61,260 bases of DNA, taken from NCBI GenBank assembly GCA_045649045.1, contig JAZRPF010000010.1, forward strand, positions 1 to 61,260, given 5' to 3'. Both the position numbers and the translations under genes were made by a program. The first letter of the stretch is position 1; each line of letters opens with the position of its first letter. This DNA comes from Eubacteriales bacterium (lineage in GTDB: Bacteria > Bacillota > Clostridia > Oscillospirales > CAG-272). Positions 8,150 to 51,460 of the stretch are shown here, piece after piece. The notes beneath the pieces are model-generated. The model was not told where the DNA came from. It saw only the letters and a list, made by a program, of their open reading frames with translations, and did no database searches.

Positions 8150-8181
8150 ACTTCTTTGATATATTTTCCTGTTTTTCGGTT

Positions 8182-8324
8182 TTACGACGCGTCCACTAAC
8201 GGCATAGGCAGAGAGCCGAGCATATTTTCTATAAATATCCCGTATCCCGTGGTGGGGTCGTTGATGAGCACGTGGGTGACAGCGCCGACAAGCTTGCCAT
8301 TCTGGATGATGGGGCTGCCGCTCA
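8182..8324 (-). pseudogene. displaced 3' fragment of spoIVB (C-terminal ~47 codons plus stop)
   Basis: translates [35 protein letters not shown]..., paralogous to the C-terminus of the intact spoIVB at 11599..12675; no start codon or upstream part. Confidence 0.75.
8297..8324. repeat. 28-bp exact direct repeat, copy 1 (islet boundary)
   Basis: CCATTCTGGATGATGGGGCTGCCGCTCA identical to 11702..11729; flanking bases differ on both sides. Confidence 0.9.
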
Positions 8325-8354
8325 CGACTGTTGTCAATAGGGGACAACAATTTT

Positions 8355-9188: not shown

Positions 9189-9292
9189 CCCTTTCTTTGT
9201 TTTTTGAAAAAAACTGCTTTGTTTTACATATTGATTATATCTGCTTTTTATGTTAAAGTCAATATGTAGAATTGAGGAACGGAACTGTATTT

Positions 9293-9817
9293 ATGATTGC
9301 AATGTTAATAGGAACACTTGGGATTACGGCAAACTGTGTCATATATCAGCAAAAAAACGGCAAAAATCTGTTGCTATGGAAAATGATTTCAGATATTTTG
9401 TGGTTTTTTCATTATTTGTTTTTAGGTGCGTATTCAGGAAGTGCGGTTGCTATGATAGGAGTATTTCGTGAATTTGTTTTTTATAAAGAAAATCAAAAAG
9501 AAAGAAAAAATATTTTTTTCTTAATATTTTTCTTATTCGCAACCTTTTTATTTACGATAATTACATGGAACGGCGTCACAAGTGTTTTTCCGGCGCTTGC
9601 CTCAATAATTTCAATTATAGGTTTTTGGAAAGCCAATCCCGTGCATTCCCGAGTGCTTGCTTTTCCTGTTTCAGGCCTAATGCTTACATACGATATAGGT
9701 TGTGCTTCTTATGTTGGAATTGTAAATGAAGTATTAACACTATTTGCTACAACGTTTGCAATAATTTATAATTTATACAAAAGAAAGGTTGATAAAAATG
9801 AGAATAGGTGTTGTTAA
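9293..9817 (+). CDS. YgjV-like inner membrane protein
   Basis: small polytopic membrane protein resembling the YgjV family from memory; ATG 9293 preferred over the TTG at 9272. Confidence 0.45.
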   Translation: MIAMLIGTLGITANCVIYQQKNGKNLLLWKMISDILWFFHYLFLGAYSGSAVAMIGVFREFVFYKENQKERKNIFFLIFFLFATFLFTIITWNGVTSVFPALASIISIIGFWKANPVHSRVLAFPVSGLMLTYDIGCASYVGIVNEVLTLFATTFAIIYNLYKRKVDKNENRCC

Positions 9818-10832
9818 CTGGGAACGAACAGGCTCGAGCGATACATATTTCGGGCACTATATTTCAAGAAGTCTCAGTCCGGCAAAATACAGACACAGAA
9901 CCCCTTATTATGCCGACATTATATCGAAAAATAAAATAGCTTTTCATAAAACATCACAAGAAGAATACGATAAAGAATTGCAATATGCTATTGATGCAGG
10001 AATTGATTATTTTGCATACACCTGGAACAGCGAAGAAAAAGAAAATCGCGCAGATTTACCGGATGCAACCAAAGAAGAAAAAGAAAACTATTTGAAAGAA
10101 GAAGAAAATTCAAAAAGAAAACTTCACACAAGAAGTGTTTTAAAGAAAAAAATAAAATTATGTGCAATACTTCTATGTATGCACAACTTCAGTGATAATG
10201 ATATGGAAAAGCTTTTGGAGGAAATGAAAGAAGATTACTATGAAAAAATAGATGGCAGACCATTGGTATATCTCTTTGGCGGATACAGATTGGATTTTAT
10301 TAAAAGGTTGCAAACAAAAGCAGAAGAAAAAGGGGTATCAAAACCATATATTTCTTTTTTTGATAATGGTGCAATAAGCGAAAACGGAGATTATTCCTTA
10401 GCAGATGCGGTAAGTTCTTATTCATTTGAATATCACAATTGCTCTTCTTATCTTGAATATTGCCAAAAACTGAATTTAAGAAACGACGAACGAAAAAAAT
10501 TCAATATAGATTTAATTCCTCTTTTTTCTCTGGGATATAATGCAAAACCAAGAATGGATAATCCCGTTCCATGGTTTGACGGCTATACCGAGGCAGGATG
10601 CACACCCCTTCCCACAATTCAGGATATGGCAAATGGCGGAAATATTTTTGCAGACTGGATGGAAGAAAATAAATCATATGTGAAAAGCAGACATATTATG
10701 GTTTTTGCATGGAATGAATTTGAAGAAGGCGCGTGGATTTGCCCCACATATGATGATGATTTGAATGTTGACAGCAGCCGCGTTAAAGTTTTTTCTGAAA
10801 TGGTTAAAAATTGGAAGCAACGATTATTATAA
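9798..10832 (+). CDS. hypothetical protein, glycoside-hydrolase-like (TIM-barrel type, family uncertain)
   Basis: MRIGVVNW.., AIDAGIDYFAYTW, VFAWNEFEEGAWICPT resemble WbsX/GH99-like proteins; assignment from memory only. Confidence 0.4.
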   Translation: MRIGVVNWERTGSSDTYFGHYISRSLSPAKYRHRTPYYADIISKNKIAFHKTSQEEYDKELQYAIDAGIDYFAYTWNSEEKENRADLPDATKEEKENYLKEEENSKRKLHTRSVLKKKIKLCAILLCMHNFSDNDMEKLLEEMKEDYYEKIDGRPLVYLFGGYRLDFIKRLQTKAEEKGVSKPYISFFDNGAISENGDYSLADAVSSYSFEYHNCSSYLEYCQKLNLRNDERKKFNIDLIPLFSLGYNAKPRMDNPVPWFDGYTEAGCTPLPTIQDMANGGNIFADWMEENKSYVKSRHIMVFAWNEFEEGAWICPTYDDDLNVDSSRVKVFSEMVKNWKQRLL

Positions 10833-10851
10833 AATATGGAGGACAGTTAAT

Positions 10852-11110
10852 ATGTCGGGGAAAATTCACGATCCGAATCTACTTAAAAGTTTTAAGGAAA
10901 CAACAGAAACAGACTGGTATGAGGTGACAGCTGAAAACTTTGATATTCACGGATTGATTAAAGATAAAGAAGGAAGCTTATCCTTAAGAATGCCTCTTGA
11001 TATTGCAAAAAACAGTAAGTGACGGTGTTTTTAATCAAGCAATTTATGGTGCAGGAGGAAGGATTCTTTTTTCCACAGATTCCCCCTTTATTTCAATAAA
11101 AGCCGAGTAG
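10852..11110 (+). pseudogene. decayed ORF (frameshifted 5' fragment, possibly SGNH/GDSL-hydrolase N-terminal domain)
   Basis: good RBS plus ATG 10852; frame stops at 11022 just after an A6 run (11007..11012), but the +1 frame continues VSDGVFNQAIYGAGGRILFSTDSPFISIKAE to a TAG at 11108..11110; no intact continuation. Confidence 0.35.
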
Positions 11111-11565
11111 CGTAATTGCAAAGGTGATAAAATAGCTCCAAAAGAGCGTGTCTTAATAAGTGAATTTTCACGTAATTGAGGTAGTGTCCTCTTTTTCAGC
11201 ATGAACTTTTCTTTAAATTCAGATATTGAGAGCCGTACTATCAGACGTTCAAACAAGTATTTTTTGCAATATTACCTGAGCGTGCATGCTTTTCTTTTCA
11301 ACTATGTTTAGAATTGTATTTTTTAAGCTCATTGTTTTACACATATAGCATCTGTAAATTCTTCAATATAGTTTTGAACCAATGCGATTTGGTTTTATTA
11401 TTATAAAATTACCCATTTATAAGGTTATAATGGCAAAAAATATAAAATTAGGTCACTTAATCAAAGTTGTAACACAAATGTAATATTAAACACCTCCATA
11501 TTTACTCCTTTTCACTAGCAAAATTACACATGGAAAGCGCGAAATTTCCTCTGTTATAAAAATGT

Positions 11566-11591
11566 GCCCGTCTGTTTTAAAACAGACGGGC
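11566..11591 (-). terminator. terminator of the current spoIVB
   Basis: palindromic hairpin GCCCGTCTGTTTT/AAAACAGACGGGC 8 nt downstream of the spoIVB stop, T-rich on both strands. Confidence 0.65.
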
Positions 11592-11598
11592 TTTTCCA

Positions 11599-12675
11599 TT
11601 ATTTAATTTTCTCTGCTTCAGCTAACATATTCTCGATGAATATCCCATATCCTCTTGTCGGATCATTCACAAATACGTGAGTAACTGCACCTATCAGTTT
11701 CCCATTCTGGATGATGGGGCTGCCGCTCATACCTTGGACAATCCCACCTGTTGCTTCAAGAAGTGCTTTGTCAGTGACACGGATGGAAAAGCATTTTGTT
11801 TCGCGATTGGCGGGGTGAATCTTGGTAATTTCAATCTGATATTGCTTTTTTTGTCCATTTTCAAGGGTGCAGTAAATTTCAGCGGCACCGATCTTGATTT
11901 CAGATGCACGGGCGGGGGGAAGTGCCTGCTTTTCAAGGTCTTTGGGCAGGTCGCTTAAGACGCCGAAAACGCCTGTTTCACTATTAACGGTGAGTGCGCC
12001 ACGCTTTTTTAAGCCGAGTGCGCCGCGCAATTCACCGGGTGCGCCTGCGGCACCCTTTTCAATGCCTTGAATTGAAACATCGGTGACAAGACCGCGTTCA
12101 AGCGGCATAACCTCGCCTGTGTCGGGGTCGCAGATGCCGTGTCCGAGACCGCCAAAAAGACCTGTTTTGGCATCAATGAAGGTAATGGTACCGATACCTG
12201 CGGTACGGTCACGCACCCAGACTCCAAGGTGATAATTGCCGTCGCTTTCAGACAGCGCCGGGGTGACGGTCAGTGTAAATTCCTTGCCCTGCCTTTTCAG
12301 CGTTAAGCTAAGCGGCTTTCCACCTGAATTTTTTACCGCGCTTGTGAGGTCACCCACATGGTGAATTTCCTTGCCGTCGATACGCGTAATCAAATCCCCT
12401 TTGGCAATACCGCCTTCTTCTGCCGGCTTTGCGTGCTTGCCGTCATGCACGACCTCTCCCAGATTGACGACCATGACGCCGGGCATAAACATCCGAATCC
12501 CAAAGACATCACCGCCCGGACAAAGACGCATATCCGAAAAAGCGTCCTTCTTTTCTTGTTTGACGGTTGCCACATCGGGAGCGTCGGCGGATACCTTCAG
12601 AGAGATGAAGGGGAGACTTATCGCCGCCATGAGCAGTGATAAGCATAAAAGACGATTTCCGATTTTTTTAATCAT
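11599..12675 (-). CDS. spoIVB: SpoIVB peptidase (S55 family sporulation signalling protease)
   Basis: 358 aa; signal/anchor, PDZ-like region, catalytic-Ser motif [21 protein letters not shown]; last ~35 codons are AT-rich like the adjacent islet. Confidence 0.85.
   Translation of the reverse strand: MIKKIGNRLLCLSLLMAAISLPFISLKVSADAPDVATVKQEKKDAFSDMRLCPGGDVFGIRMFMPGVMVVNLGEVVHDGKHAKPAEEGGIAKGDLITRIDGKEIHHVGDLTSAVKNSGGKPLSLTLKRQGKEFTLTVTPALSESDGNYHLGVWVRDRTAGIGTITFIDAKTGLFGGLGHGICDPDTGEVMPLERGLVTDVSIQGIEKGAAGAPGELRGALGLKKRGALTVNSETGVFGVLSDLPKDLEKQALPPARASEIKIGAAEIYCTLENGQKKQYQIEITKIHPANRETKCFSIRVTDKALLEATGGIVQGMSGSPIIQNGKLIGAVTHVFVNDPTRGYGIFIENMLAEAEKIK
11702..11729. repeat. 28-bp exact direct repeat, copy 2 (inside spoIVB)
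   Basis: identical to 8297..8324; encodes SGSPIIQNG of SpoIVB. Confidence 0.9.
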
Positions 12676-38459: not shown

Positions 38460-38840
38460 ATGGCCGGAAATAGAAAACTCGGCAGAAAATCCGCTCACAG
38501 AAAGGCTATGCTGAGAGGCTTAGTTACCTACCTTCTCGAGAACGGTGAAATTGAAACGACGCTCACAAGAGCTAAGGAAGTTCGCTCTGTCGCCGAAAAG
38601 ATGATTACCCTCGGCAAGACAAACACCTTGGCTTCCTACCGTGAAGCGCTCGCATATATTACCAAGGAATCTGTTGCGAAAAAGGTCTTCGACCAGATTG
38701 CTCCGTCTTATGAGAATGTAGATGGCGGTTATACACAAATTTTCAAGCTTGGGCCCCGTCGCGGCGACGCCGCAGAAATGGCTCTCATCAGACTTGTCAA
38801 GGTTGATGCAGACGCAAAAGCCCCCGCTGAAAACGCATAA
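38460..38840 (+). CDS. rplQ: 50S ribosomal protein L17
   Basis: [20 protein letters not shown]...E.IETTL.RAKE. Confidence 0.95.
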
Positions 38841-38943: not shown

Positions 38944-40818
<1,875 letters not shown>

Positions 40819-40821
40819 TCA

Positions 40822-40911
40822 TAAAAAACAAGGGCCGAAATCAAACAAAGCAGAAAGAATATACCCGCTATCTCGGATATACTTTTGAGCTTTTATGTTT
40901 GATTCCGACCC
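40822..40911 (-). terminator. long imperfect hairpin plus T-tract downstream of the repressor operon
   Basis: arms 40832..40847 and 40896..40911 pair 14/16; on the minus strand followed by TTGTTTTTTAT. Confidence 0.4.
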
Positions 40912-40970
40912 TGTGTATTCCCGAATTCACAGCCGGGAGGATGGAACGTATTCGCCACGCGAGGCGGCAG

Positions 40971-41225
40971 TTATAGAGCGACGCGAGTCGCTATGAATCT
41001 TGCAGGCTCGTTCGGTCTTGCGTGTAGAGCCTTGATACAGAGAGCAACCTTCCCATGACAGTGCGGACATTCCAATATGTAATCCGCGTCAGATGCTTCC
41101 GAGAGCCGTTTGAGCTCACTGTCATTTCGCAGGAGCACGTCAGGAACGTCAGCGAAGCGATGGTTGCCGTAGGGACATTTCAGTTTCGGCATATATCTTC
41201 TACCGTCATCTGTTTTTTCCGCCAT
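40971..41225 (-). CDS. hypothetical small zinc-ribbon-like protein
   Basis: 84 aa; KCPYGNH...ECPHCHG; 15 nt downstream of the repressor gene, probably co-transcribed. Confidence 0.5.
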   Translation of the reverse strand: MAEKTDDGRRYMPKLKCPYGNHRFADVPDVLLRNDSELKRLSEASDADYILECPHCHGKVALCIKALHARPNEPARFIATRVAL

Positions 41226-41240
41226 TGAATACCTCCTTTA

Positions 41241-41861
41241 TCACGAGTCAAGATCCTTCATCACCATAGTGGCAACGCCTTGGATCCTTAAATCATTTAG
41301 CTGTTCGCCTTTCAAAATAATGGGCTTGAGTGAATCGTTTTCGGGTACGAGATGCACCTCGCTGTCACTGACGCGGTGGTAGCGTTTGAGGGTAGTGCAA
41401 TCACTTCGATAGAGAAAGGCAACGATCTGACCCTCACGCGCCGTTTCCTGTTTGCGAATGAGAACAAGGTCACCGCTGTCAATTCCTGCGTTTATCATCG
41501 AATCTCCGCTGGCACGCAGAAGGAAGAAATCTCCGCTACCGGTCAAAGCCAAGGGCAATCGGATATGCTCAAGCTCGGCATCGGTCACCTCGGTGAGCGG
41601 ACCGCAAGGAATGGAATTACCCATCTGCACACGGTTGGTGTCCATCAGCTCACGCATATACTTGGTGATGATACCACGGTGACCGTCGTATTCGATCTCG
41701 CCTTGCTCCTGCATGGTTTTGAGATATCTCTGAATGGTGGGACGGGAAGCACCGATCCCTTGCTCGATCTCCCGAGTGGAGGGAGACCTGCCGTAATCCT
41801 CAAAATATTCATTAACAAAATCGATAATTTTTCTGAACAGCGATTCATCTCTGCTTCTCAT
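41241..41861 (-). CDS. LexA/CI-like repressor (wHTH plus S24 self-cleaving peptidase domain)
   Basis: N-terminal HTH (SPSTREIEQGIGASRPTIQRYLK), catalytic Ser in ASGDSM and Lys in TLKRY, LexA spacing; ATG 41861 follows a GGGGG RBS. Confidence 0.85.
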   Translation of the reverse strand: MRSRDESLFRKIIDFVNEYFEDYGRSPSTREIEQGIGASRPTIQRYLKTMQEQGEIEYDGHRGIITKYMRELMDTNRVQMGNSIPCGPLTEVTDAELEHIRLPLALTGSGDFFLLRASGDSMINAGIDSGDLVLIRKQETAREGQIVAFLYRSDCTTLKRYHRVSDSEVHLVPENDSLKPIILKGEQLNDLRIQGVATMVMKDLDS

Positions 41862-41882
41862 AAAAGCCCCCTGAAACATAAT

Positions 41883-41896
41883 GAGCCATTTGGCTC
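41883..41896. promoter_or_regulatory. candidate operator (6-2-6 perfect inverted repeat)
   Basis: GAGCCA-TT-TGGCTC between the repressor -10 box and its start codon. Confidence 0.4.
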
Positions 41897-41900
41897 TTTA

Positions 41901-41929
41901 ATTATAACACAGCACGTGTGTTTTGTCAA
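41901..41929 (-). promoter_or_regulatory. consensus sigma-A promoter for the repressor operon
   Basis: minus strand TTGACA-N17-TATAAT (perfect consensus). Confidence 0.6.
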
Positions 41930-41995
41930 GAGGTTTTGAAAAATACTCGATTTTTGGAAAAGCAATTGCGATTGCACCAAAATTGTCACATTGTA

Positions 41996-42024
41996 TTGAA
42001 AAACTCCAAAAAATATGATATAAT
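41996..42024 (+). promoter_or_regulatory. consensus sigma-A promoter for the plus-strand cargo operon
   Basis: TTGAAA-N17-TATAAT with TG extension; flanked by GCAATTGC (41962..41969) and ATTGCAAT (42039..42046) palindromes. Confidence 0.6.
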
Positions 42025-42062
42025 GACTAATAATAAAAATTGCAATAGGATACCAACGAATT

Positions 42063-42791
42063 ATGAAAACGATTTGGCAACTTACTTATGAAACAAAACC
42101 GGGCAATGATGGCGTGCAAACAAAAAAATACAAATCTTTTGCCGAGGCAAAGAAGGATATCCGAGAGATTATTTCGCAAATTTATCTATCGCCATATATA
42201 AAGGCGATTCGTACAGATGGTGTCCACAAAGCTTACCGTACAGCAATGGCAGGCTTTTTGGATAATTACATTTCTCATACTGATTTTTTGAATATAGATG
42301 AATCCATTCCGTCAGACGATCCCGATGACTATGAATTTGAGCGAAAGCCAACGAGCGAGAACGATGCTGGCATGAGTGTTGACGATGACGATTGGAACGA
42401 CGAAGATGAGGAAGTTGACGAGCTTGACGATTTTGATATCTACATTGCAAAGGATTCTCTCTCCTTTGAATGTTACTATGAAGGACGACCTCATCTCAAC
42501 ACGGACATGGTCGTAATGGATGATGAAAATAAGGAGTATTGCTTTGAGTTCTACGTGGACAGAGCCCCAAAAAATAAACTGAGAGAGCTACAAATGACAT
42601 TGACACCTTTGCAATATTGGGGCACCTCATCCTATCCTATGTTGATCCTTCGCACCTTGGAAAATAGCCAAGAACCTCTTGATCAGCAACAAATCATTTC
42701 ACGCATTGAGAACGCTTATGATACAGCATATACAAAATTATTTCAGATTTTTGAATGCGCTTGTTATAATAGCGGTGCAATTGGTCGATGA
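42063..42791 (+). CDS. hypothetical protein with strongly acidic central segment
   Basis: 242 aa; DDDDWNDEDEEVDELDDFD tract; no recognisable family. Confidence 0.55.
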   Translation: MKTIWQLTYETKPGNDGVQTKKYKSFAEAKKDIREIISQIYLSPYIKAIRTDGVHKAYRTAMAGFLDNYISHTDFLNIDESIPSDDPDDYEFERKPTSENDAGMSVDDDDWNDEDEEVDELDDFDIYIAKDSLSFECYYEGRPHLNTDMVVMDDENKEYCFEFYVDRAPKNKLRELQMTLTPLQYWGTSSYPMLILRTLENSQEPLDQQQIISRIENAYDTAYTKLFQIFECACYNSGAIGR

Positions 42792-42828
42792 CTCCAAAAA
42801 CATTAATTAACCACGAGGAGATTGTATT

Positions 42829-43641
42829 ATGAAACACCCCGAAATTCAGCAGATTATTGATACTATGACAAAGACAGGCTACGATTACAAGAAAGAAATT
42901 GAGGAAATCGAAGTAATGCAAAAACGTGCAACAATTAGTATAAATTCTGCACCGTCTTCAAACCCCTCCGTAGCTTCTGTGACATCTCTTGCATTGCCCG
43001 ACCATGTGAAAGCTATGATTTACGCACAGCTTTCCAATAACCGTCCGTGGCAACCTATCTATAACAATCGCCTGACAATTGATGCGATATTTAGCGATTA
43101 TGATATTGAATTGTTGAAGAAGGCTAATCCTGCTACTCTTGTTGATAAAATCGCAGAAATCCACTGCGGTAACAGACAAATCAAACGACAGATGCAGAGC
43201 CTCAAAGCAAATATTGAAACATTGGAAAGAATCGAAGAAGAACACGGTTCAATCAGTGGCTATTATGCTACAACAAGTCTTGTAGATGTTATTAAAAGCT
43301 TGAGCCAATCGGGAAAGAATTATAAACTCAATTGTATGGGCATCCCGCTTGTCTGCGAATATCTCAAAGGCGTTGGTGTTGAGGTGATCAAACCCGACTC
43401 GCTTCTTTGTAGACTTCTGGGACGGTTGGGATATTCCAAAAAGATTCCTGCAACTCCGTGGGAGGCAATAGAGATTTGCAAAGAAATTGGCGATGAATAT
43501 GGATTATCTCAGGCAGAGGTTGATACAATCCTTTGGCAGTATTGTGCAAAAGACAAATTCGAAGTATGTACCGACAATCCCAAATGCGCTCAATGTGGTG
43601 TATATAATTGCCCAAACAGAACTTGCCCGAGCTTAGTATAA
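42829..43641 (+). CDS. hypothetical protein, TAG/HhH-GPD-like DNA glycosylase superfamily candidate with C-terminal Cys cluster
   Basis: 270 aa; middle region resembles 3-methyladenine glycosylase I layout, HhH-like LKGVGVEVIKPDSLLCRLLGRLG, C-terminal C-x5-C-x2-C-x4-C; from memory, not searched. Confidence 0.4.
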   Translation: MKHPEIQQIIDTMTKTGYDYKKEIEEIEVMQKRATISINSAPSSNPSVASVTSLALPDHVKAMIYAQLSNNRPWQPIYNNRLTIDAIFSDYDIELLKKANPATLVDKIAEIHCGNRQIKRQMQSLKANIETLERIEEEHGSISGYYATTSLVDVIKSLSQSGKNYKLNCMGIPLVCEYLKGVGVEVIKPDSLLCRLLGRLGYSKKIPATPWEAIEICKEIGDEYGLSQAEVDTILWQYCAKDKFEVCTDNPKCAQCGVYNCPNRTCPSLV

Positions 43642-43655
43642 TTGGTGAAAAAAGT

Positions 43656-44207
43656 ATGGAAAATAAAAAATATCCGCTTCTCGTTTACAGAGAAAAGATG
43701 GCAGAAGTACATACGCCCGAGGAGATCAAAGCTGCCTTTGACGACAGTTTCTATGCCGTTTGCTTTAACTACGATCGCGGTCATGGCAGAGCCAAGTACG
43801 CATTGTTCGCGGCGATATGGGAGATCAATCCCGATGTGATCATTACCGAGGCTGACCTCTGCATTATGACGGTTGAGCCGGTCGTGTGGCGCGACCAGCT
43901 CTTGCTTATCGATAAAAATGGCGACAAAGAAACAGCAAACAAGATTGCAAAATTTATGGCGGAATCGGGTATCATTTCCTATGAATACCGATTTGTTAAC
44001 AAATCCTGCGCAAAGAGCTGCTTGCCGCCGAGTGAAAACAGAAAACCTACCGCATTATTCAAGGGCAACCTGCTCATTGACGGCGACAAGTTGCTTTTGA
44101 CTGCAAGGCATACGAATAAGGCGGATAGAACGAACACGGAAAATCTACAAACGCTGAAAATCAAAAGGAGAACCAAGAATGAAATTCTGCCCGGAGTGTG
44201 GAAGTAA
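43656..44207 (+). CDS. hypothetical protein
   Basis: 183 aa from ATG 43656; overlaps the next gene by 29 nt; no family recognised. Confidence 0.45.
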   Translation: MENKKYPLLVYREKMAEVHTPEEIKAAFDDSFYAVCFNYDRGHGRAKYALFAAIWEINPDVIITEADLCIMTVEPVVWRDQLLLIDKNGDKETANKIAKFMAESGIISYEYRFVNKSCAKSCLPPSENRKPTALFKGNLLIDGDKLLLTARHTNKADRTNTENLQTLKIKRRTKNEILPGVWK

Positions 44208-45870
44208 ACTTGCTTCCGAATCTGCAAAATTTTGCTCGGAATGCGGATTCAAATTAAATATCTCAAATTCTGTTAACGCCGAGGAATCCGTTGAAATAGA
44301 AGATAACATTTCATCAGAGAAAGAAGAAGTTAATGAATTTAAAAAAGCTATGCAAGCATTTGAGTATACGCGGTACGTTGACGGTCAATATGTCATCTTA
44401 AAATGTATTGAGCCGTATGCCAAATCAATCACCGTGCCAAAAGGAGTATCGATAATAGGTGAAGAAGCTTTCTTTGGGCATGAAATGGTTGAAGAAATCT
44501 TTTTGCCCGAAGGCCTAACCACTATATGCAAGCAAGCGTTTAATAACTGTAAAAAGTTAAAGAGAATCAATATTCCATCCACAGTGATATCTATTTTAGA
44601 TGGAGCTTTCGGGGAGTGCACTGAGCTTGAAGCAATCATGCTCCCTGATAAGCTTTCCCAAATCGGTGTATCAACATTTTTCAAATGCCACAAAATCAAA
44701 AGTGTTAGCATTCCAAAATCCATTACAGAAATCCCCGAAGAACTATTTGCTTATTGCGGTGCTCTGGATCAAGTCGCACTTCATGACGGAATCACGGTTA
44801 TTGGTAAAAGCGCATTTTGTGCAACCAATCTGAAGAAAGTCGAGTTGCCGTTATCTCTCCAAGTAATTCAAGAAGATGCCTTTGGTTTTTGCAGAAATCT
44901 TGAACACATTACTCTGCCTCACGGTACGGAGGTTGTTGGAGCCAAGGCCTTCTACGGTTGTGAGAATCTTTCGGAAATTGTTATTCCCGAAACAGCAACT
45001 TACTTTGGAGACGGAGCATTTAATGGGTGTAAAAATCTTAAATCAATAAATATTCCAGACGGCGTGTGGCGTTTAAACAGTTGTTTGTTCTTTGGTTGCT
45101 CGAATCTTGGCGAAATCACAATACCTAAATCGGTTGGATACATTGGTAATTTGGTTTTCAGTGGCTGTTATAAACTGAAAAAAGTCACGATCATCGGTCA
45201 TACACGTATATTACACGAAGCTTCAGAGGAAGAATTGATGGACATAGACTACAGACCGCGTGAATGGAATCCTCAATGGGAACTGCCTGCTGGATGTAAG
45301 GTAGTCAGAAAATCTACATCTAATGCCAACAAAAGCTCTCCGAAGCAACCTGCTCCCAAAAAGATTAACCCCAAAAAGAATATTTCAAAAAGCCAAGAAA
45401 TTGCACACACATTGAATCAATTTGAAAACATGAAATGTGAGGCGTTGCCTGATGGCTCTTATAAACTAATTGCTTATCTCGATTCAAATGCGGTCTCTGT
45501 AACACTCCCCGATAGCATCACGGAAATTCGCTCCGGGGCATTTGAAAACTGCAATGAGCTTTGTGATATTGAGCTTCCGTCTACCCTTATCTATATCGGT
45601 GTTTCTGCTTTTGCGAATTGTCCTTCCTTGCAAACAATCACAATTCCTCGATCTGTAGACAATATTGACAGCGGTGCTTTCGAAGGATGCTGTAATCTTG
45701 AAAGGGTTACCTTCGAGGATCCCGATAGTTGGTATTATGAGGACGATGATACGGAGGATCCAGATGATTGCGAGATCGATATTTCCCCCGAAGATTTGAA
45801 AGATCCTCAAAAAGCGGCCGAGCTGTTGAAAACGCGAGATAAATTTATCACTTGGCTTAAGAGAGATTGA
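44179..45870 (+). CDS. zinc-ribbon plus BspA-type leucine-rich repeat (LRR_5) protein, no signal peptide
   Basis: 563 aa; FCPECGSKL..FCSECGFKL then two blocks of ~23-aa repeats (I.IP.SV..IG..AF..C..L) split by a K/P-rich linker; RBS AAGGAGAA. Confidence 0.75.
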   Translation: MKFCPECGSKLASESAKFCSECGFKLNISNSVNAEESVEIEDNISSEKEEVNEFKKAMQAFEYTRYVDGQYVILKCIEPYAKSITVPKGVSIIGEEAFFGHEMVEEIFLPEGLTTICKQAFNNCKKLKRINIPSTVISILDGAFGECTELEAIMLPDKLSQIGVSTFFKCHKIKSVSIPKSITEIPEELFAYCGALDQVALHDGITVIGKSAFCATNLKKVELPLSLQVIQEDAFGFCRNLEHITLPHGTEVVGAKAFYGCENLSEIVIPETATYFGDGAFNGCKNLKSINIPDGVWRLNSCLFFGCSNLGEITIPKSVGYIGNLVFSGCYKLKKVTIIGHTRILHEASEEELMDIDYRPREWNPQWELPAGCKVVRKSTSNANKSSPKQPAPKKINPKKNISKSQEIAHTLNQFENMKCEALPDGSYKLIAYLDSNAVSVTLPDSITEIRSGAFENCNELCDIELPSTLIYIGVSAFANCPSLQTITIPRSVDNIDSGAFEGCCNLERVTFEDPDSWYYEDDDTEDPDDCEIDISPEDLKDPQKAAELLKTRDKFITWLKRD

Positions 45871-45883
45871 AAGGAATATAACT

Positions 45884-46081
45884 ATGGCAGATGAAATTAT
45901 AAGAGATTTCGGCGGTAGAATAATCGCTCGAATTGAAACAAAGCCCAACGGCGACAAGATTGTTCGCGATTTTGGCGGTCATATACTGGGCAGATACGAT
46001 AAAGCAGCGAATGTTACCCGAGATTTCGGCGGACATATTCTCGCGCGTGGCGAATGTTTAGGAATTCTAATTGGAAAATAA
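45884..46081 (+). CDS. small tandem-repeat protein (3x RDFGG[RH]I[IL][AG]R)
   Basis: 65 aa; IRDFGGRIIAR / VRDFGGHILGR / TRDFGGHILAR. Confidence 0.6.
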   Translation: MADEIIRDFGGRIIARIETKPNGDKIVRDFGGHILGRYDKAANVTRDFGGHILARGECLGILIGK

Positions 46082-46112
46082 ATAATATCATACAGCAGAA
46101 AGGAGACAAATC

Positions 46113-46268
46113 ATGGCACAATTCACTGTAGTCTTTACCGATGGAGGTTCGTATCTCGTAACAGCCCCAGATAAATACGCGGCTATTGAAAAGGCAAAAA
46201 GCCAAAAGAGCAATAGTGACCGTGTAGGAGTTAAAGAGGTTAAGGATTGCCACGGAAACAAAGTCTAA
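46113..46268 (+). CDS. hypothetical 51-aa protein
   Basis: not in ORF track; AAAGGAGA RBS 6 nt before ATG; own translation MAQFTVVFTDGGSYLVTAPDKYAAIEKAKSQKSNSDRVGVKEVKDCHGNKV. Confidence 0.5.
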   Translation: MAQFTVVFTDGGSYLVTAPDKYAAIEKAKSQKSNSDRVGVKEVKDCHGNKV

Positions 46269-46281
46269 TCTGAAAAAAGGT

Positions 46282-46312
46282 CAAGCCCTCCGCAAAATTA
46301 GCGGAGGGCTTG
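46282..46312. terminator. bidirectional terminator between the two convergent cargo operons
   Basis: perfect 12-bp stem CAAGCCCTCCGC/GCGGAGGGCTTG, A-run before and T-rich after. Confidence 0.7.
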
Positions 46313-46323
46313 CTGTTATCATA

Positions 46324-46683
46324 TCAAAGTCCTAATGCATACTTAAGTTTTTTATCAAGCTCTGCCATTGTTTCATCGCTCAGACGCCCAATATGATTTT
46401 TCAAACGCTTGGTATCAATTGCCCTAATTTCATAGAGCAGAATCCGGTACGAAAAAAGCGGAAGCTCCGGAATGTCCGCGGGAATCGTTGCCATTGCGTT
46501 CTGACTTTCGAACTCAGTGCTATTTGAGGACAACGGAGCAACAATAACTGTACCGCCATTTGAGTAAGCTTCTTCATTCAACTCATCGTTTGAAACAATA
46601 ACAACATACCGTATTCCGCCCATTTCAGCGCCAAATACAGGCGACAGATCTGCCCAAAATATATCTCCGCGTTTTATTATCAT
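46324..46683 (-). CDS. MazF/PemK (EndoA-like) endoribonuclease toxin
   Basis: MIIKRGDIFWADLSPVFGAEMGGIRYVVIVSND closely parallels B. subtilis EndoA [33 protein letters not shown]; ATG 46683 after GGAGGAG. Confidence 0.85.
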   Translation of the reverse strand: MIIKRGDIFWADLSPVFGAEMGGIRYVVIVSNDELNEEAYSNGGTVIVAPLSSNSTEFESQNAMATIPADIPELPLFSYRILLYEIRAIDTKRLKNHIGRLSDETMAELDKKLKYALGL

Positions 46684-46739
46684 GGCTTTACTCCTCCTAC
46701 TTTGTACTATTCTAATTATAACATAAATTCTTTTCGCGT

Positions 46740-47837
46740 TCAAGTACTGTATTCAGCCATTATCTGTTGATACTCTCTCGGATAATAGACTTGATACCAA
46801 TTCAGAATAATCGAATATTTCAATTCCAACACCGCAAGCGCTTTTGTTGACATATAGTGTGTGGTTCTGATAAAGCTACCGAACCAATCTGGAAGACCAA
46901 GCATTTGTAATGTGATGTTGGTATAATAATCCATGCCGTGTTCATAGTAATATCCGCGCCGAGCTTTATTTGCTACGTCATAAGCAAAGCCCGCATCGTT
47001 AAAATCGCAGTCACGCATCGCGTCACGGATAATCATAAATACCTCGTCGCGCGTAGAAGGAATATCGGTGAGCGAACAGATCCCATTAGAGAGAAGCTGC
47101 TCAGCGTTATGCCGCCAAGTGCAAGTGCCGTGGACAAGTCCGATCAGCTTCAGAAAATCGCTATATGTTACCGGATGTGCGATCGTGATCATTTGCTTGA
47201 TAACTTTTTCGCCGCCAACACCTGCTAATTTCTCAAATTCACCCGTCAAAAGTCGGTGCTTGACTCCGCGGTCGTTCAAGTCAATACTATCCAAACACTC
47301 ACCGGTGCGCTTTTCCAACTGCGCGCAAATACTGAGAGTCCGCAACAGCGATTTCTGAAAATGGGAGAAGGTAGCCTCGGATAGCTCAAGATAGCTTTCA
47401 TCGGTAACATCTGCAACCTTGAGCTTTTTTGCATAAGGCAGATAGGTTTCAAAGGGAATGTCGAAGCCGTCTGCCTTCATCTTTTCACCGCAGGCGCAAA
47501 TGCGGTCGCGAAGGTCGAACGCGCACCTGCCTTCCACCCATTCCACCGTTTTACATTTCGGGCAATAATAATGCGTGGGCAACGGATTTTCGTCTGTCGC
47601 ACCAAGTAAATATGCCACAAAACAAGAGGCGACCGCGTTTTTGACAACCATTCGTTCATCAGCTTGCTTTACTTCGGCACGGAGCCTGAAAAGTTCGTAA
47701 AAGTATTTGCCAACCTCATACTGCATAAAGGCTTGTTTTTCGCTGTAAAATCGGCTGACGATACGCAGATCGGGCATATCTCCGTACAATTCAAAAATCC
47801 TTTTATATGCTTTGTCCCAAATTTCTTTTTCGGTCAT
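46740..47837 (-). CDS. stand-alone degenerate PolC PHP/zinc-finger-region homologue
   Basis: 365 aa; [40 protein letters not shown] and [17 protein letters not shown] match remembered PolC segments, with metal-ligand positions substituted. Confidence 0.6.
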   Translation of the reverse strand: [365 protein letters not shown]

Positions 47838-48295
47838 CTATGATTTTCTCCTTTATACTTTTCAAGCGCATCAAACACCTTGTGATATACAAGCTGATTG
47901 GGATAATACCGATAATCCGCAAAAATATCGATTCCGCGCCCTTCAAAGTGCTGCAATATCGCAGCGGCGCAGCCCGCGGAGCGGGATTGACCGAAATCGC
48001 ATTGGCAGATAATGTCGCGTCCCTCGGCTCTTGCTTCGTAAATAAATTTTGCAAGCTCGTCTGCTTCTGCAAGATAGGTTTCGTAGGTGTAGCCGTAATC
48101 ATCAAGGATCTCGATATCAATATCGGGGATCAGAATGTTAAATACGCGGTCACATGCGTTCCCGAAATAAACCCGTACTTCTTCGGCTCTGCGCGTTTTG
48201 CGCGGACTGCAAAAGCTGATGACCGCCGTGTTTTTTGGGAAATCCCCCTTCATAAGCTCTTTAATCGCTTTGCGGGAATAGATTTCAACCTTCAT
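47834..48295 (-). CDS. Cys-based phosphatase-like protein (CX5R loop)
   Basis: 153 aa from ATG 48295 (RBS GGAGGGAAAG); CDFGQSRS = C-x5-R-S P-loop; acidic IPDIDIEILDD upstream. Confidence 0.5.
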   Translation of the reverse strand: MKVEIYSRKAIKELMKGDFPKNTAVISFCSPRKTRRAEEVRVYFGNACDRVFNILIPDIDIEILDDYGYTYETYLAEADELAKFIYEARAEGRDIICQCDFGQSRSAGCAAAILQHFEGRGIDIFADYRYYPNQLVYHKVFDALEKYKGENHR

Positions 48296-48872
48296 TTTCT
48301 TTCCCTCCATCAAGATCAATATAAGAATAATTGCTGTGCTGAAGGCACAAAACGTAACCTTTTGTCAGTTCAGTAGGGATTTTTCGTTCAGCAAAAGCTC
48401 CGTTGCCGTCGTAAATACGGATGCTTGTTTCATTTGATGATACTCTTTTCGAGGTACAGCAGTATTTAAAAACCTGCTTTTTAAGATCAGGCGCGGTGTA
48501 CGGCGCAGTGGTGATCTCATAGGCATAATTCACTTTTTCCTTGCTGCAATCCCACGTGTCATAAATACAACCGTCAACGCAAGCAGACCAGTGCTCATCC
48601 ATATCAAGAATATATCTGCCGCGAAGATGTTGTTTGCAAAATTCCTCGGCGGTCAATTGGTTATTAAGGGATATCTTTTTTGCGTTTAATACATCCTCAA
48701 CGTATCGCAGATTTTTTACACTGTTGAAGGACTTTGCGCCCGTGACCTTTTTGTATTCATTCAATTTGCGTTGAACAGCCGCGTAGTCCCACCCCGTCAC
48801 TACAACGATAGCGCGCTTTACGCAATCGTCGGTAGACAAGCCCTTGGGGTGAGGATTATAATATTTATACAT
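48285..48872 (-). CDS. hypothetical protein, N-terminal papain-like (Cys-His-Asp) domain candidate
   Basis: 195 aa; YNPHPKGLSTDDCVKRAI ... HWSACVDGCIYDTWD; resembles a widespread phage/Firmicute family of unknown function. Confidence 0.4.
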   Translation of the reverse strand: MYKYYNPHPKGLSTDDCVKRAIVVVTGWDYAAVQRKLNEYKKVTGAKSFNSVKNLRYVEDVLNAKKISLNNQLTAEEFCKQHLRGRYILDMDEHWSACVDGCIYDTWDCSKEKVNYAYEITTAPYTAPDLKKQVFKYCCTSKRVSSNETSIRIYDGNGAFAERKIPTELTKGYVLCLQHSNYSYIDLDGGKENEG

Positions 48873-49137
48873 CTTGCAGATTCCTTTCTTTCAATGATTC
48901 TTTGTACTGCTCACGGTACTCAGCAAGTGTCGCGCCGTTGGCAGCAGAATAGTGATCCTCGGGAAATCCATCATATTCCCATCCGCAATGACGGCAAATA
49001 TCGTAATTATCAAGTGTTTTGCGCTTGCAAACGGGACAAATTATAACTGAATGATCCTCGTCATAGGCTGTACCGACGGGTGGTAAAACACGCTTGCCGT
49101 ACTCTCCGCGTATTGCGGCATAAATGCTTTCTTTCAT
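48865..49137 (-). CDS. CPCC-family cysteine-rich protein
   Basis: 90 aa; CPVCKRKTL..YDICRHCGWEYD. Confidence 0.65.
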   Translation of the reverse strand: MKESIYAAIRGEYGKRVLPPVGTAYDEDHSVIICPVCKRKTLDNYDICRHCGWEYDGFPEDHYSAANGATLAEYREQYKESLKERNLQDV

Positions 49138-49700
49138 ATGCGGACCATTTGAACCTTTTCATGCTTTATTTCAGGATAGCCTGAGCAAACTGAGATAAAT
49201 ACTTGTCTGCCCAGAGAAGAAAGCTTATCAAGAATTAAAGTGATGTCGAATGCCTCATCGAGACGGTCGAAATAGCTGTAAATGAAGATAGGACGGTCAT
49301 CATCACGAGAGGTTATGTTGGCGGTTTTAATAAGCACATTGGAATCATCCGTGTCACGCTCGTTGCACTTATCTACAAACTCACGGGTATCGTCCTCTGA
49401 AAAGTGTACACTGTTCGGCTCAAAGTTTGCGGCAAGGCGGTTGTCGCCCATAAAGTCGGCATTGCGGATATAGCATACGCTGTAATTCTTGTTGTCCATC
49501 TCAATGTCTGCGTGGATTACGAAGCGCCCATCGTCAACACGATCGGGATCGTTCTGCGCGCCGTAGTCACCAATTAACTCGCGCAGAAGGTCAAGAGCGA
49601 GATCGGAGTAGTGGCCGTGAAGCATACAAACAGGGGAGGTAATTGTAAAGTCAAGATCGAGGGCAGAGGCAGATGTGATTTGAAGATTGCTAAATTTCAT
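49134..49700 (-). CDS. hypothetical protein, ABC/SMC-ATPase-like layout lacking a P-loop
   Basis: 188 aa; N-terminus laid out like RecF/SbcC heads but HGHYSDLA replaces GxxGxGKS; C-terminal RPIFIYSYFDRLDE resembles Walker B. Confidence 0.35.
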   Translation of the reverse strand: MKFSNLQITSASALDLDFTITSPVCMLHGHYSDLALDLLRELIGDYGAQNDPDRVDDGRFVIHADIEMDNKNYSVCYIRNADFMGDNRLAANFEPNSVHFSEDDTREFVDKCNERDTDDSNVLIKTANITSRDDDRPIFIYSYFDRLDEAFDITLILDKLSSLGRQVFISVCSGYPEIKHEKVQMVRI

Positions 49701-49748
49701 TTTTTACTCTCCTTTTGAGTGAAAATAATAATTATAATCGTGAAAGAG

Positions 49749-49777
49749 ATTATAACACACGATTTAAAAAATTTGAA
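49749..49777 (-). promoter_or_regulatory. candidate promoter of the minus-strand cargo operon
   Basis: minus strand TTCAAA-N17-TATAAT with TG extension; -10 box enclosed by inverted repeat AATCGTG (49736..49742) / CACGATT (49758..49764); second TATAAT at 49731..49736. Confidence 0.45.
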
Positions 49778-49861
49778 ATAAAAACAGGTTGGATTTTGGA
49801 ATCGATGGTTACACGAATAGTATATCACACCGCCTTGCGACATTTATGGTGCATGGTGGGT

Positions 49862-49901
49862 AAAAAAGGAAAACACCACTTCAGTTTTCGTGGTGTTTTG
49901 C
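49862..49901 (-). terminator. terminator after the DUF6809-like gene
   Basis: stem AAAACACCAC/GTGGTGTTTT; on the minus strand followed by CCTTTTTT. Confidence 0.65.
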
Positions 49902-49913
49902 AGCAATACATTT

Positions 49914-50189
49914 TCATTCATCGTGTTCAGATTGTATCTCCAGTGCCAACCGCGCCCCAAGCTTGAAGGCATATTCGAATAATGTCTCGTCAGAGAGACT
50001 TGCGTATTCACTCCAGCAATCCTGGAACTTCTCGAAGATTTTCTTTTGCTCATCCGTCATAGTTTTGAGTAGGTCATCATTATGCCGGCTAATGTATTCC
50101 AACAGTTGCTTCATCTCGAGTGTATTCTTTCTACTGTCCTCGGGTGGCATAATGTTTCCGCACCATAGCTCTTTTATCATACTTTTCAT
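49914..50189 (-). CDS. DUF6809-like small protein
   Basis: 91 aa; ELWCGNIMPPED... recalls a family common on Clostridial mobile elements; RBS AGGAGG. Confidence 0.55.
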   Translation of the reverse strand: MKSMIKELWCGNIMPPEDSRKNTLEMKQLLEYISRHNDDLLKTMTDEQKKIFEKFQDCWSEYASLSDETLFEYAFKLGARLALEIQSEHDE

Positions 50190-50343
50190 AGAACATACCT
50201 CCTGTTAGCATACAACAATACCACAGAAGAGAGAGAAAGTCCAGTCGTTTTTCGAAAATAAAGAACTTTTTCTTGTCGGGCGTTATCTTTGATTTCTGCG
50301 TGGCAATTATTGAGCCTTGAGTTTCACAGTACGGCTTATTAAA

Positions 50344-50379
50344 GCAAAACACCACGGATTTTCTTCCGTAGTGTTTTGC
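50344..50379 (-). terminator. terminator of the DapF-fold gene
   Basis: GCAAAACACCACGG/CCGTAGTGTTTTGC (one mismatch); weak T-tract on minus strand. Confidence 0.45.
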
Positions 50380-50465
50380 CATAAGAGCTGCTTATTCGGT
50401 TGCTATCATTTTACCGCTAATTTTGCACGCCCTATTGGTCACTTTTCTTTTTTCTTAATTGATTA

Positions 50466-51311
50466 CTACAGGTCAATTGTGCCCTCAAAGCACAAATGGG
50501 CGTCGCCTTTTGAAACAAAGGGCGCACCAATGCCTTCACTTGTTAAGCTGAGACTGCCACCGCGCATTTGAACCTCAAGGGCTATTCCAATTGGTAAAAG
50601 ACCGCACATCTGTGCGACTGCAACTGCCGCTGCCGCGCCGCCGCTTGATGCCGAAAGCTCACCTTCATGTGTATCAAATATTCTTGCCGATAATGAGGTG
50701 CTGCTTGTAATTTCCGCAAAAACTATCGCTTCTCCTTTGGAGTAAAGGGAATATCTCAAAAGGGATAAAGCTGTTTTGATGGGATTCAGCAATTCAAGTG
50801 GAGTATCAAATTCAAGCAGAACTGTATAGGGACGGTCAACTGTCAGGCTATAAACGCTATAACCCCTTCCGTCAAGAACGAGCTTTTGTCCAAGTGGCTG
50901 TACTTGCGTATGTGGGGCAATATGTGTATCAAAGCACGGAGATGGCAAGGTGACCGATATTTGCTCCGGATTTTCCTCATCAAAAGAGAGCGAATAAATC
51001 TGGCCGTCGCACAAAAGTCGTGCGGTGCTTTGGCAAACCATGCCCTGCGTGCGAAAGTAGGCACCCGCAGCACGCACGGCTTCGCCTGATGGCGAGCAAG
51101 AGCTGCCGTGGTAGTCATAAGCACTCATACCGCAAATGCTTTCACCGTCGGGCAAGGTGTTTATCTCCGGGAAAAGAATCGCATTGGGGAAGAGCGCAGT
51201 CTTGCTTCTTCCGAGCATACGCGCAAGCTCTTCACGAGGGATGGGGCATTCCTCTTTCGGTACGACAAAATCACAAGACAGTGTTTGCAGCTTGGAAAAT
51301 GCAATTTTCAT
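50466..51311 (-). CDS. diaminopimelate-epimerase-fold protein (non-canonical DapF/PhzF superfamily)
   Basis: 281 aa from ATG 51311 (RBS AAAGGTG); two-domain DapF-like layout, first Cys motif as SCSPSG, second site SASSGGAAAA has Ser where DapF has Cys. Confidence 0.5.
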   Translation of the reverse strand: MKIAFSKLQTLSCDFVVPKEECPIPREELARMLGRSKTALFPNAILFPEINTLPDGESICGMSAYDYHGSSCSPSGEAVRAAGAYFRTQGMVCQSTARLLCDGQIYSLSFDEENPEQISVTLPSPCFDTHIAPHTQVQPLGQKLVLDGRGYSVYSLTVDRPYTVLLEFDTPLELLNPIKTALSLLRYSLYSKGEAIVFAEITSSTSLSARIFDTHEGELSASSGGAAAAVAVAQMCGLLPIGIALEVQMRGGSLSLTSEGIGAPFVSKGDAHLCFEGTIDL

Positions 51312-51460
51312 ATGGCGCACCTTTATCGTTTTCTTTGATGTTGCCATATGAATGTTATGCATTTTCTGTAAAAAAGATGTCGCTTTTTGAGAAAAAAGTG
51401 CTTTTTTTATTAAATGGCGGGATATCACCAAGAAATAAATAGAAAAAGTTTCTAAAATTC

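Follow-up and report, generated by a model that had tools for sequence, protein, structure and literature searches.

The window considered here is a stretch of 61,260 nucleotides from an Eubacteriales bacterium (contig JAZRPF010000010.1 of assembly GCA_045649045.1). Its gene at 46740-47837, on the minus strand, encodes a protein of 365 amino acids (aa) related to PolC, the replicase that Bacillota cannot do without and a target of drugs now in clinical development. We call this gene mini-PolC. The open reading frame (ORF), its PolC matches, an AlphaFold2 model, Foldseek comparisons and the ratio of nonsynonymous to synonymous substitution rates (dN/dS) identify the product as a catalytically dead, stand-alone derivative of the polymerase core of PolC, and we hold this identity and the pseudo-enzyme status to be very nearly certain. 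An initial annotation had described the gene as a stand-alone, catalytically degenerate copy of the PHP/zinc-finger region of PolC on a mobile island. The stand-alone character, the degeneracy and the island setting are all borne out; the PHP identity is not. The ORF has no interruption, and the three peptides then quoted as PolC-like are all present, at residues 69-135, 231-252 and 327-353. The gene and its parts are as follows.

46740-47837, minus strand: mini-PolC gene, 365 aa, catalytically dead, stand-alone derivative of the PolC polymerase core
47589-47837, minus strand: residues 1-83, N-terminal palm helices aligned to PolC 810-890; GS loop SRGSVGSS changed to VKNAVASC; 19% identity to PolCs
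47433-47588, minus strand: residues 84-135, NPLP-H motif and four-Cys zinc finger through DGFDIPFE; the most PolC-like part
47214-47432, minus strand: residues 136-208, remnant linker; catalytic strands deleted, about 30 residues of thumb-base helices kept
46770-47213, minus strand: residues 209-356, fingers sub-domains with HGTCTW (H236), KARRGYY and a helix carrying Y328; end at PolC position ~1279, as in most short relatives

Relation to PolC

A phmmer search of all PDB chains returns PolC only, with the structures from G. kaustophilus (3F2B, E-value 6.2e-33) and E. faecium (9QPC, E 1.2e-30), and the match is split in two (query residues 3-144 and 209-356). The NCBIfam PolC equivalog PRK00448/NF001688 matches with E 5.9e-43 and 146.7 bits against a cutoff of 873, and TIGR01405 with E 1.6e-40 and 138.7 bits against a cutoff of 1043. 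The homology proposed initially is therefore clear from both searches, while both models place the 365-aa protein far below the threshold of a functional PolC. In Pfam, the palm (DNA_pol3_alpha) and DNA_pol3_finger families are matched below threshold, and no PHP, RNase_T or OB match is found.

Domain boundaries were taken from a Pfam search of a genuine PolC of 1,427 aa (P0248), in which OB spans 231-306, the exonuclease 414-568, PHP reaches ~677, the palm starts at 813 and the fingers cover 1094-1234. By BLASTP, the query aligns to residues 810-946 and 1090-1279 of this PolC, and the NCBIfam model positions (830-967) concur. Mini-PolC thus combines two pieces of PolC, namely the start of the palm, which includes the four-Cys zinc finger (PolC ~810-946), and the fingers (PolC ~1090-1279). 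The PHP assignment is wrong because the homologous PolC segments map downstream of the PHP domain. Two further points of the initial annotation are half right. A GHDDPT-like motif is indeed missing, its segment being deleted, but in PolC it is found on the strand of the palm that bears the third catalytic Asp (KLDILGHD) and not in PHP. Likewise, the exonuclease is absent as stated, with no RNase_T match, but the protein said to have neither palm nor fingers consists of just these two. Net charge and isoelectric point are mildly acidic and PolC-core-like, which is uninformative.

Loss of the catalytic parts and predicted fold

The alignment with seven true PolCs contains two deletions. The first takes the D-x-D strands and the second a beta-hairpin and the strand of the third Asp; the catalytic/thumb segment has 38 residues in the query vs. 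144 in PolC. The acidic triad needed for catalysis (D973, D975 and D1098 in Gka PolC), of which PDIDxNF supplies two Asp and KLDxLGH the third, is not found in the 365-aa protein. At the D-x-D site, KVADVTD stands opposite PDIDLNF with the first Asp alone kept, and this stretch is the least conserved part of the 365-aa family. In E. faecium PolC, the D-x-D aspartates are D972 and D974, and residues H1185, Y1274, F1276, H1280 and Y1284 line the pocket of the polymerase active site that holds the nascent base pair or inhibitor (PMC12592400). Residue roles follow that work, and the offset between the 9QPC chain and its residue numbers was calibrated with the phmmer alignment and the residues named there.

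In this mapped numbering, HGTDVW contains H1185, and a second fingers motif contains the other four pocket residues; the motifs initially read as substituted metal ligands of a PHP domain are those of the fingers and active-site pocket. The five equivalents in mini-PolC are H236, Y328, S330, L334 and E338, the first two being retained and the last three changed. Within the family, H236, Y328, S330 and K332 are invariant, and L334 and E338 nearly so. Catalysis is judged lost because D-x-D is not conserved, the third-Asp strand is deleted, the GS loop is gone and F1276/H1280/Y1284 are replaced by S/L/E. The suggestion of a polymerase-derived scaffold rather than an enzyme is well supported by these losses.

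The zinc finger has been treated differently. Its cysteines C92, C95, C114 and C116 are invariant in the 365-aa family and at least 90% conserved across 95 short relatives. They align to the CPxC...CPxC of PolC, and the four-Cys feature specific to PolC is therefore present as a predicted zinc site. This module is 50% identical to the seven true PolCs, while the other regions are at 19-26%.

An AlphaFold2 model built on a diverse alignment of 95 sequences shows one compact fold, with a mean predicted local distance difference test (pLDDT) score of 94.1 and a predicted template modelling score of 0.92; it supersedes an earlier run on 15 close homologues, which was poor (pLDDT 57). Disorder is confined to residues 145-150 (pLDDT <50), at the D-x-D site. 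With this model, Foldseek retrieves PolC structures at template modelling (TM) scores of 0.77-0.78, with E-values down to 5e-17, and DnaE-type enzymes at 0.51-0.59. Structure prediction with superposition, which had been proposed as a check, thus agrees with a PolC origin (TM 0.78). Mini-PolC is predicted to be a compact, zinc-binding and non-catalytic fold in which the first helices of the palm are joined to the PolC-specific zinc finger and to the proximal part of the fingers. As judged from the alignments, the catalytic beta-strands, most of the thumb and the PHP, exonuclease, OB and clamp-binding parts of the PolC ancestor were all lost.

This uneven conservation bears on one alternative, namely that the module is a decoy or guard of the replicase. 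It would mimic the zinc-finger and fingers surface of the host PolC and capture a phage or toxin factor that attacks PolC. The zinc finger that stays half identical to PolC in a protein that has otherwise drifted, the fold closer to PolC than to DnaE, and the invariance of H236, the equivalent of the PolC-specific H1185, all speak for mimicry. However, three of the five pocket residues are changed, and consistently so, as if this face had gained a specificity of its own instead of imitating PolC. The conservation of the zinc module may be structural, and the host polC lies outside the window. We regard the decoy as unlikely.

Selection in the 365-aa family

A search of 90%-identity clusters gave 238 matches, of which the best 120 are at 55-88% identity and nearly all 360-370 aa long. 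The hosts are metagenome-assembled genomes (MAGs) of uncultured Clostridia, Eubacteriales, Oscillospiraceae and Lachnospiraceae from the guts of yak, sheep, roe deer and other animals. A sequencing-run search gave, among the matches listed, only partial ones, in DNA gut metagenomes. Pairwise dN/dS against the window copy is 0.11-0.16 (about 0.14) for members with dS near 1; two more distant members give 0.09 and 0.25, and synonymous sites are saturated for the most distant. The 365-aa gene is under purifying selection.

The name "DNA polymerase III alpha subunit (gram-positive type)", which some databases give to relatives, would fit a fragment left as a pseudogene when a polC gene broke, or a split polymerase of which this protein is one half and the catalytic half acts in trans. 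A broken polC is ruled out by the constant length in more than 100 clusters, the dN/dS of ~0.14, the compact fold and the coupled start: the mini-PolC start codon overlaps the stop codon of the preceding gene (ATGA) and has a good ribosome-binding site (RBS). The initial annotation had likewise not taken the gene for such a fragment. A split polymerase is excluded because no second ORF of at least 50 aa on the island resembles PolC even at E<=1; the match of the 365-aa protein itself, 147 bits against the 873-bit equivalog cutoff, also argues against this reading. Taken together, the chance that either version is right is practically negligible.

A wider superfamily of inactivated mini-PolCs

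A profile search of 1.84 billion 50%-identity representatives yields 2,222 proteins at E<=1e-3, including 371 at E<=1e-30. Among the top 148 relatives, 43 have 330-450 aa, 48 have 451-600, 31 have 601-1000 and 15 are longer than 1000. The short forms map to PolC about 810-945 and 1090-1279, the mid-length class to the PHP domain without the exonuclease plus the core, and nearly all relatives end at PolC ~1279. In almost all short forms the D-x-D site is non-acidic. They keep the zinc-finger cysteines, usually with CxC instead of CxxC in the second pair, and NPLP, DGxxIPFE and HGTxxW, often with YLFPKAH as well. Their database labels are hypothetical, HTH domain-containing or, wrongly, DNA polymerase III alpha.

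In a neighbour-joining (NJ) tree computed without support values, every inactivated form falls in one derived clade, and the query lies beside the most reduced solo forms. The set was defined by the retained palm N-terminus, zinc finger and proximal fingers of PolC, an end at PolC ~1279, a D-x-D site that is not acidic and a catalytic/thumb segment cut short, and the window protein shows all of these. By its sequence it is placed as the most reduced branch of a large group of inactivated mini-PolCs.

Many of these proteins carry additional domains (proteins and loci of the survey are given by handles such as P0126 and L001). An N-terminal XRE/Cro-C1 helix-turn-helix (HTH) is found by Pfam in 34 of the 95 short relatives, and 14 of the HTH-fused proteins match the HTH model of the MqsA antitoxin. 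Mini-PolC is also fused to an FtsK-gamma winged helix (P0126) and, in an inactivated form, to an N-terminal P-loop NTPase of DnaB_C/nSTAND-like type (P0213 and P0276); P0144 is a single-chain tandem duplication. At locus L001 (6872-9098), a second mini-PolC paralogue lies directly upstream of the 365-aa gene (hhalign E 9e-76). The HTH and STAND-like NTPase fusions place the module where sensor domains usually sit, which is a further point for the decoy; in fused proteins it would turn on a response as an integrated decoy.

The L001 paralogue, of 387 aa, has no zinc finger and keeps a PolC-like fingers motif; its 365-aa partner has the zinc finger but YMSTKAL. A DnaA-like AAA+ gene precedes this tandem pair. 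At L109 (6583-10253) and L110, a cREC_REC receiver, an RtcB RNA ligase and an NTPase-mini-PolC fusion are translationally coupled, and the trio adjoins GmrSD_N and a Cas4-like/DUF2779 gene.

The mid-length PolC-like proteins (P0181, P0191, P0196, P0205 and others; 700-980 aa) combine palm, thumb and fingers with a PHP domain that mostly has no exonuclease. As their sequences end at PolC ~1280-1290, the (HhH)2 and clamp-binding region is missing. PDIDLNF and KxDxLGH are kept in most of them; several are partly degenerate. From their sequences, they may be minimal polymerases or intermediates toward the dead forms.

Searches in viruses and plasmids gave no relatives of the reduced kind. PHROG had no match for mini-PolC, and a pattern scan of IMG/VR with the family alignment found no relatives. 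By tblastn, annotated phages and plasmids gave polymerase-length PolC matches only, and the two plasmid matches inspected are full-length PolC genes in replication modules; a BFVD fold search returned full-length phage polymerases only.

The island and the five-gene operon

The mini-PolC gene lies on an integrated island with the following features.

38944-50400: integrated island of ~11.5 kb, cargo-rich, between rplQ and a DapF-like gene; GC (guanine plus cytosine) content 39-47% vs. ~50% in the flanks
38944-40773, minus strand: large serine recombinase (Resolvase, Recombinase, Zn_ribbon_recom and DUF4368), at the island end beside rplQ
41241-41879, minus strand: LexA/S24-peptidase-type repressor, an island gene
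49749-49777, minus strand: promoter-like site TTCAAA-17-TATAAT with TG, preceding the five operon genes, from a consensus scan only
49134-49700, minus strand: 188-aa protein, first cistron of the operon; no family match in Pfam, NCBIfam, PADLOC or PHROG
48865-49137, minus strand: 90-aa Cys_rich_CPCC zinc-ribbon protein (PF14206, E 7e-8), collinear in family loci and recurring near distant mini-PolCs
48285-48872, minus strand: 195-aa operon partner (phrog_3754, E 4e-24), collinear in nearly all family loci
47834-48319, minus strand: 161-aa DSP-like cysteine phosphatase (Pfam DSPc, E 3e-4; weak DUSP12 loop match; phrog_5614) with an intact CX5R(S) loop, CDFGQSRS

The neighbouring rplQ is confirmed at 38460-38840, and the cluster of ribosomal-protein genes, rpoA and rplQ ends at 38840. 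The same island architecture is present in other MAGs. Mini-PolC is the last of five overlapping minus-strand genes, after those for the 188-aa protein, the CPCC protein, the 195-aa protein and the DSP-like phosphatase, and its translational coupling, through the ATGA overlap, is to the phosphatase gene. Most family loci show the same gene order, but the position immediately before mini-PolC varies, with the DSP-like gene in ~14 of 21 loci, an AAA ATPase in L002, L003 and L007, and the second mini-PolC in L001. Distant mini-PolCs are found in mixed arrays with LRR_5, CPCC, GIY-YIG, WYL-LRR, SLOG and AAA_15/21 genes.

Little could be learned from annotation of the partners. NCBIfam gave nothing useful for them, sequence searches against the PDB gave only the weak DUSP12 loop match of the 161-aa protein, and a literature search on CPCC/PF14206 and on PolC-like pseudo-polymerases found nothing relevant. 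The AAA ATPase of L002 has no detectable homology to the N-terminal NTPase of P0213, with which it was compared as a Rosetta-stone test.

The mobile setting, together with the retained PolC-like palm and fingers surfaces and zinc finger, would also suit interference with the replisome. As a dominant-negative fragment, mini-PolC would compete for a PolC partner or for primer-template, and slow or redirect host replication for the benefit of the island. In C-family polymerases, however, duplex DNA, the clamp and other partners are held by the thumb, (HhH)2, clamp-binding and PHP/Exo regions, all of which mini-PolC lacks. Chromosomal, solitary HTH-fused relatives also fit this role poorly, and the operon promoter found in the consensus scan looks constitutive, which would be costly for a replication poison. 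We therefore find such interference highly improbable.

Several other genes lie on the island or near it. The 270-aa protein at 42829-43641 (plus strand) has a weak PADLOC match to OGG (HhH-GPD glycosylase-like) and a C-terminal Cys cluster, CTDNPKCAQCGVYNCPNRTC; a DNA-glycosylase gene, Pur_DNA_glyco, also occurs in the array beside the distant mini-PolC of L109. A BspA-type LRR_5 protein of 563 aa with an N-terminal zinc ribbon is encoded at 44179-45870 (plus strand), and LRR_5 genes recur beside mini-PolCs at all evolutionary distances sampled (L002, L004, L025, L027 and L111-L115). The 65-aa ORF at 45884-46081 (plus strand) contains three copies of RDFGG(H/R)I(L/I) (MADEIIRDFGGRIIARIE...VRDFGGHILGRYD...TRDFGGHILARGE); it has no family match and was not seen by tblastn in related loci. 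At the far island edge, a 321-aa ORF (50466-51431, minus strand) has a weak, sub-threshold DapF match (51 bits vs. a cutoff of 115) and is possibly a divergent or decaying diaminopimelate epimerase.

Outside the island, a second low-GC patch (window 8000-12000, 33-37% GC) holds ordinary chromosomal genes: an AraC-type regulator, a YgjV membrane protein and a WbsX-like glycosyltransferase. It is followed at 11599-12675 by a SpoIVB peptidase gene, which indicates a spore-forming Clostridia host.

The MazF neighbour

Downstream of mini-PolC lies a toxin gene with signals of its own.

46324-46683, minus strand: MazF/PemK-type toxin, 119 aa from M21 of the listed ORF (Pfam PemK_toxin, E 3e-25), an independent cassette
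46715-46743, minus strand: promoter-like site TTGAAC-17-TATAAT with extended -10, from a consensus scan, within the gap of 57 nt that separates the mini-PolC stop from MazF
46282-46312, minus strand: hairpin resembling an intrinsic terminator (12 bp, 9 of them GC, plus a T-run), downstream of MazF

A strong RBS in the same gap precedes the MazF start at 46683. No recognisable antitoxin for MazF is found in the window, and the mini-PolC gene is immediately upstream of it. It is therefore natural to ask, as the initial annotation did, whether mini-PolC is an atypical antitoxin or holder that binds and neutralises this orphan toxin. The distribution of MazF offers some support. The 128 MazF clusters with 69% identity or more all appear to be of the island lineage, and, down to 70% identity, each sampled context of the family has a 365-aa PolC-like gene within ~2.5 kb upstream. 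MazF is still intact in window-type loci that have no 50-aa ORF of the kind described below. The matches of 14 XRE-HTH fusions to the MqsA antitoxin model also point this way.

Several observations stand against the antitoxin role. MazF lies 0-2.5 kb downstream of the 365-aa gene in the sampled contexts, and what lies between the two is nothing, a 50-aa ORF, a 50-aa ORF with a Spo0A_C-like gene, or a 64-aa ORF with an IS110 transposase and a 50-aa ORF, that is, from 0 to 3 unrelated genes. The pair is judged not to be operonic because these intervening genes vary and MazF has its own promoter-like site; RBS and terminator-like hairpin add to this independence. In the 21 loci first sampled, full-length MazF is present in 8 and partial MazF (18-46% of the gene) in 3 more; the toxin is missing or decayed in about half of the loci, whereas the PolC-like gene is intact under purifying selection. 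Distant mini-PolCs have no toxin neighbour, and the co-occurrence with MazF is confounded by the shared descent of one island lineage. A MazE-like arrangement, bicistronic, co-transcribed and obligately co-occurring, is thus not what is seen. We do not think that mini-PolC is primarily a MazF antitoxin, and consider the role very unlikely.

The 50-aa ORF (MELAYYDVTYRR...) is found ~114 nt upstream of MazF in L002 and L112-L115; it is absent in the window and persists without MazF in L001.

A proposed role in binding or sensing

The reading that we favour, with confidence that goes no further than an even chance, is that mini-PolC is a non-catalytic binding or sensor module in conflict-type cargo loci. 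The island provides such a context, with its serine recombinase, S24 repressor, MazF, BspA-type LRR protein and OGG-like glycosylase, as do the variable slot before the gene and the WYL, SLOG, AAA_15/21 and LRR neighbours of distant members. The reading is also supported by the constraint on the 365-aa family, including its conserved replacement residues in the pocket, and by the recurrent HTH, FtsK-gamma, NTPase and tandem fusions, in which the module looks like a regulatory or sensor domain. The module would no longer synthesise DNA and would bind a protein partner or a nucleotide or nucleic-acid ligand, through a surface made of the remodelled former active-site face and the zinc finger. 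It would probably act as a dimer. In the HTH-fused relatives, the PolC-derived part may be the signal-receiving domain of a transcription factor, and the stand-alone island form may act in trans with its translationally coupled partners, in a conflict-type operon devoted to defence, counter-defence or immunity.

Several observations weigh against this reading or limit it. PADLOC has no model match for mini-PolC, MazF or the operon partners. The synteny among loci with the 365-aa gene may simply come from their shared origin in a single island lineage rather than from functional coupling. The HTH-fused relatives are solitary genes in unrelated neighbourhoods that give no hint of a signal; a metagenome scan with the HTH-fusion alignment matched the generic XRE-HTH pattern, and only ~8 of its 80 loci were relevant, with uninformative contexts. 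The NJ tree is crude, and the dimer is suggested only by the tandem and fused paralogues. Finally, nucleotide sensing is not specifically supported because the residues that contact deoxynucleoside triphosphates are only partly retained, both in the 365-aa family and in the HTH class.

The same conflict-type loci, with MazF linked to the island, would also accommodate the decoy introduced above. As a stand-alone protein it would either confer immunity through mimicry, by protecting PolC, or set free an effector, for example MazF. In a more specific form, the PolC core, alone or fused to HTH or STAND-like NTPase domains, would have been exapted as a replicase-mimic sensor (an "integrated decoy") for factors of phages or interbacterial toxins that attack the Gram-positive replicase, coupled here to the release of MazF or to the co-translated phosphatase. 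We consider this form unlikely.

Pseudo-enzymes derived from a replicative C-family polymerase core appear to be an undescribed superfamily, no description having been found in the literature searched. Fragments whose active site is not intact had been removed from the main survey of Pol III alpha homologues (PMC3919608). Fold and ancestry were already known; what appears to be new is a conserved non-catalytic superfamily that includes HTH and NTPase fusions. Its hundreds of 50%-identity representatives, the repeated fusions and the strong purifying selection point to a widespread non-catalytic role for the polymerase cleft and the zinc-finger surface in gut Clostridia. Its recognition also corrects a recurrent mis-annotation that would inflate polC gene counts in MAGs. 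The questions that it raises concern the ligand of the remodelled active-site face, the regulation of HTH fusions by replication-related signals, and whether the mobile copies are defence, counter-defence or immunity factors.

Comparison with known systems

Type II antitoxins of the MazE type resemble mini-PolC in that its gene is upstream of MazF in the window. In contrast, mini-PolC has no AbrB, RHH or HTH DNA-binding domain and about four times the size; variable genes come between it and MazF, which has its own promoter-like site, and it often occurs where MazF does not.

A parallel in principle is offered by pseudo-polymerases of the ImuB type. ImuB is a catalytically dead Y-family homologue that acts as the hub of the mycobacterial mutasome, carries a clamp-binding motif and works with ImuA' and DnaE2. 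In both cases a polymerase fold devoid of its catalytic acidic residues would be kept as a binding scaffold. However, the Y-family fold is unrelated to that of the C family, and the clamp motif and partners of ImuB have no counterpart seen here.

With the PolC core itself (3F2B/3F2C; 9QPC/9QRL/9QRN), mini-PolC shares the palm helices, the four-Cys zinc finger, NPLP-H, DGxDIPFE, the HGTxxW helix and the YM..K fingers helix. The differences are in size, ~1,430 aa for PolC vs. 365 aa, in the absence of the N-terminal domain, OB, PHP, exonuclease, ring and little fingers, (HhH)2 and clamp-binding region, and in the second Cys pair, CxC in mini-PolC and CxxC in PolC. Mid-length PolC-like proteins stop at the same place as mini-PolC, near PolC 1280-1290, and lie in the NJ tree between true PolC and the inactivated forms. 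Unlike mini-PolC, most of them keep PHP and the catalytic motifs, and, to judge from these motifs, they may be active enzymes.

Close as well are the inactivated relatives, which comprise the solo forms (330-450 aa), the XRE-HTH fusions (about 470-520 aa) and the FtsK-gamma, NTPase and tandem forms. They have the same PolC segments, the same end, the same loss of D-x-D and the same CxC variant. Among them, the window family has the deepest deletion, with 38 residues against 60-100 in most of the others. The Gly-rich loop and the FPKAH motif, which many relatives keep, are gone from it, and it stands alone, with no fused DNA-binding domain.

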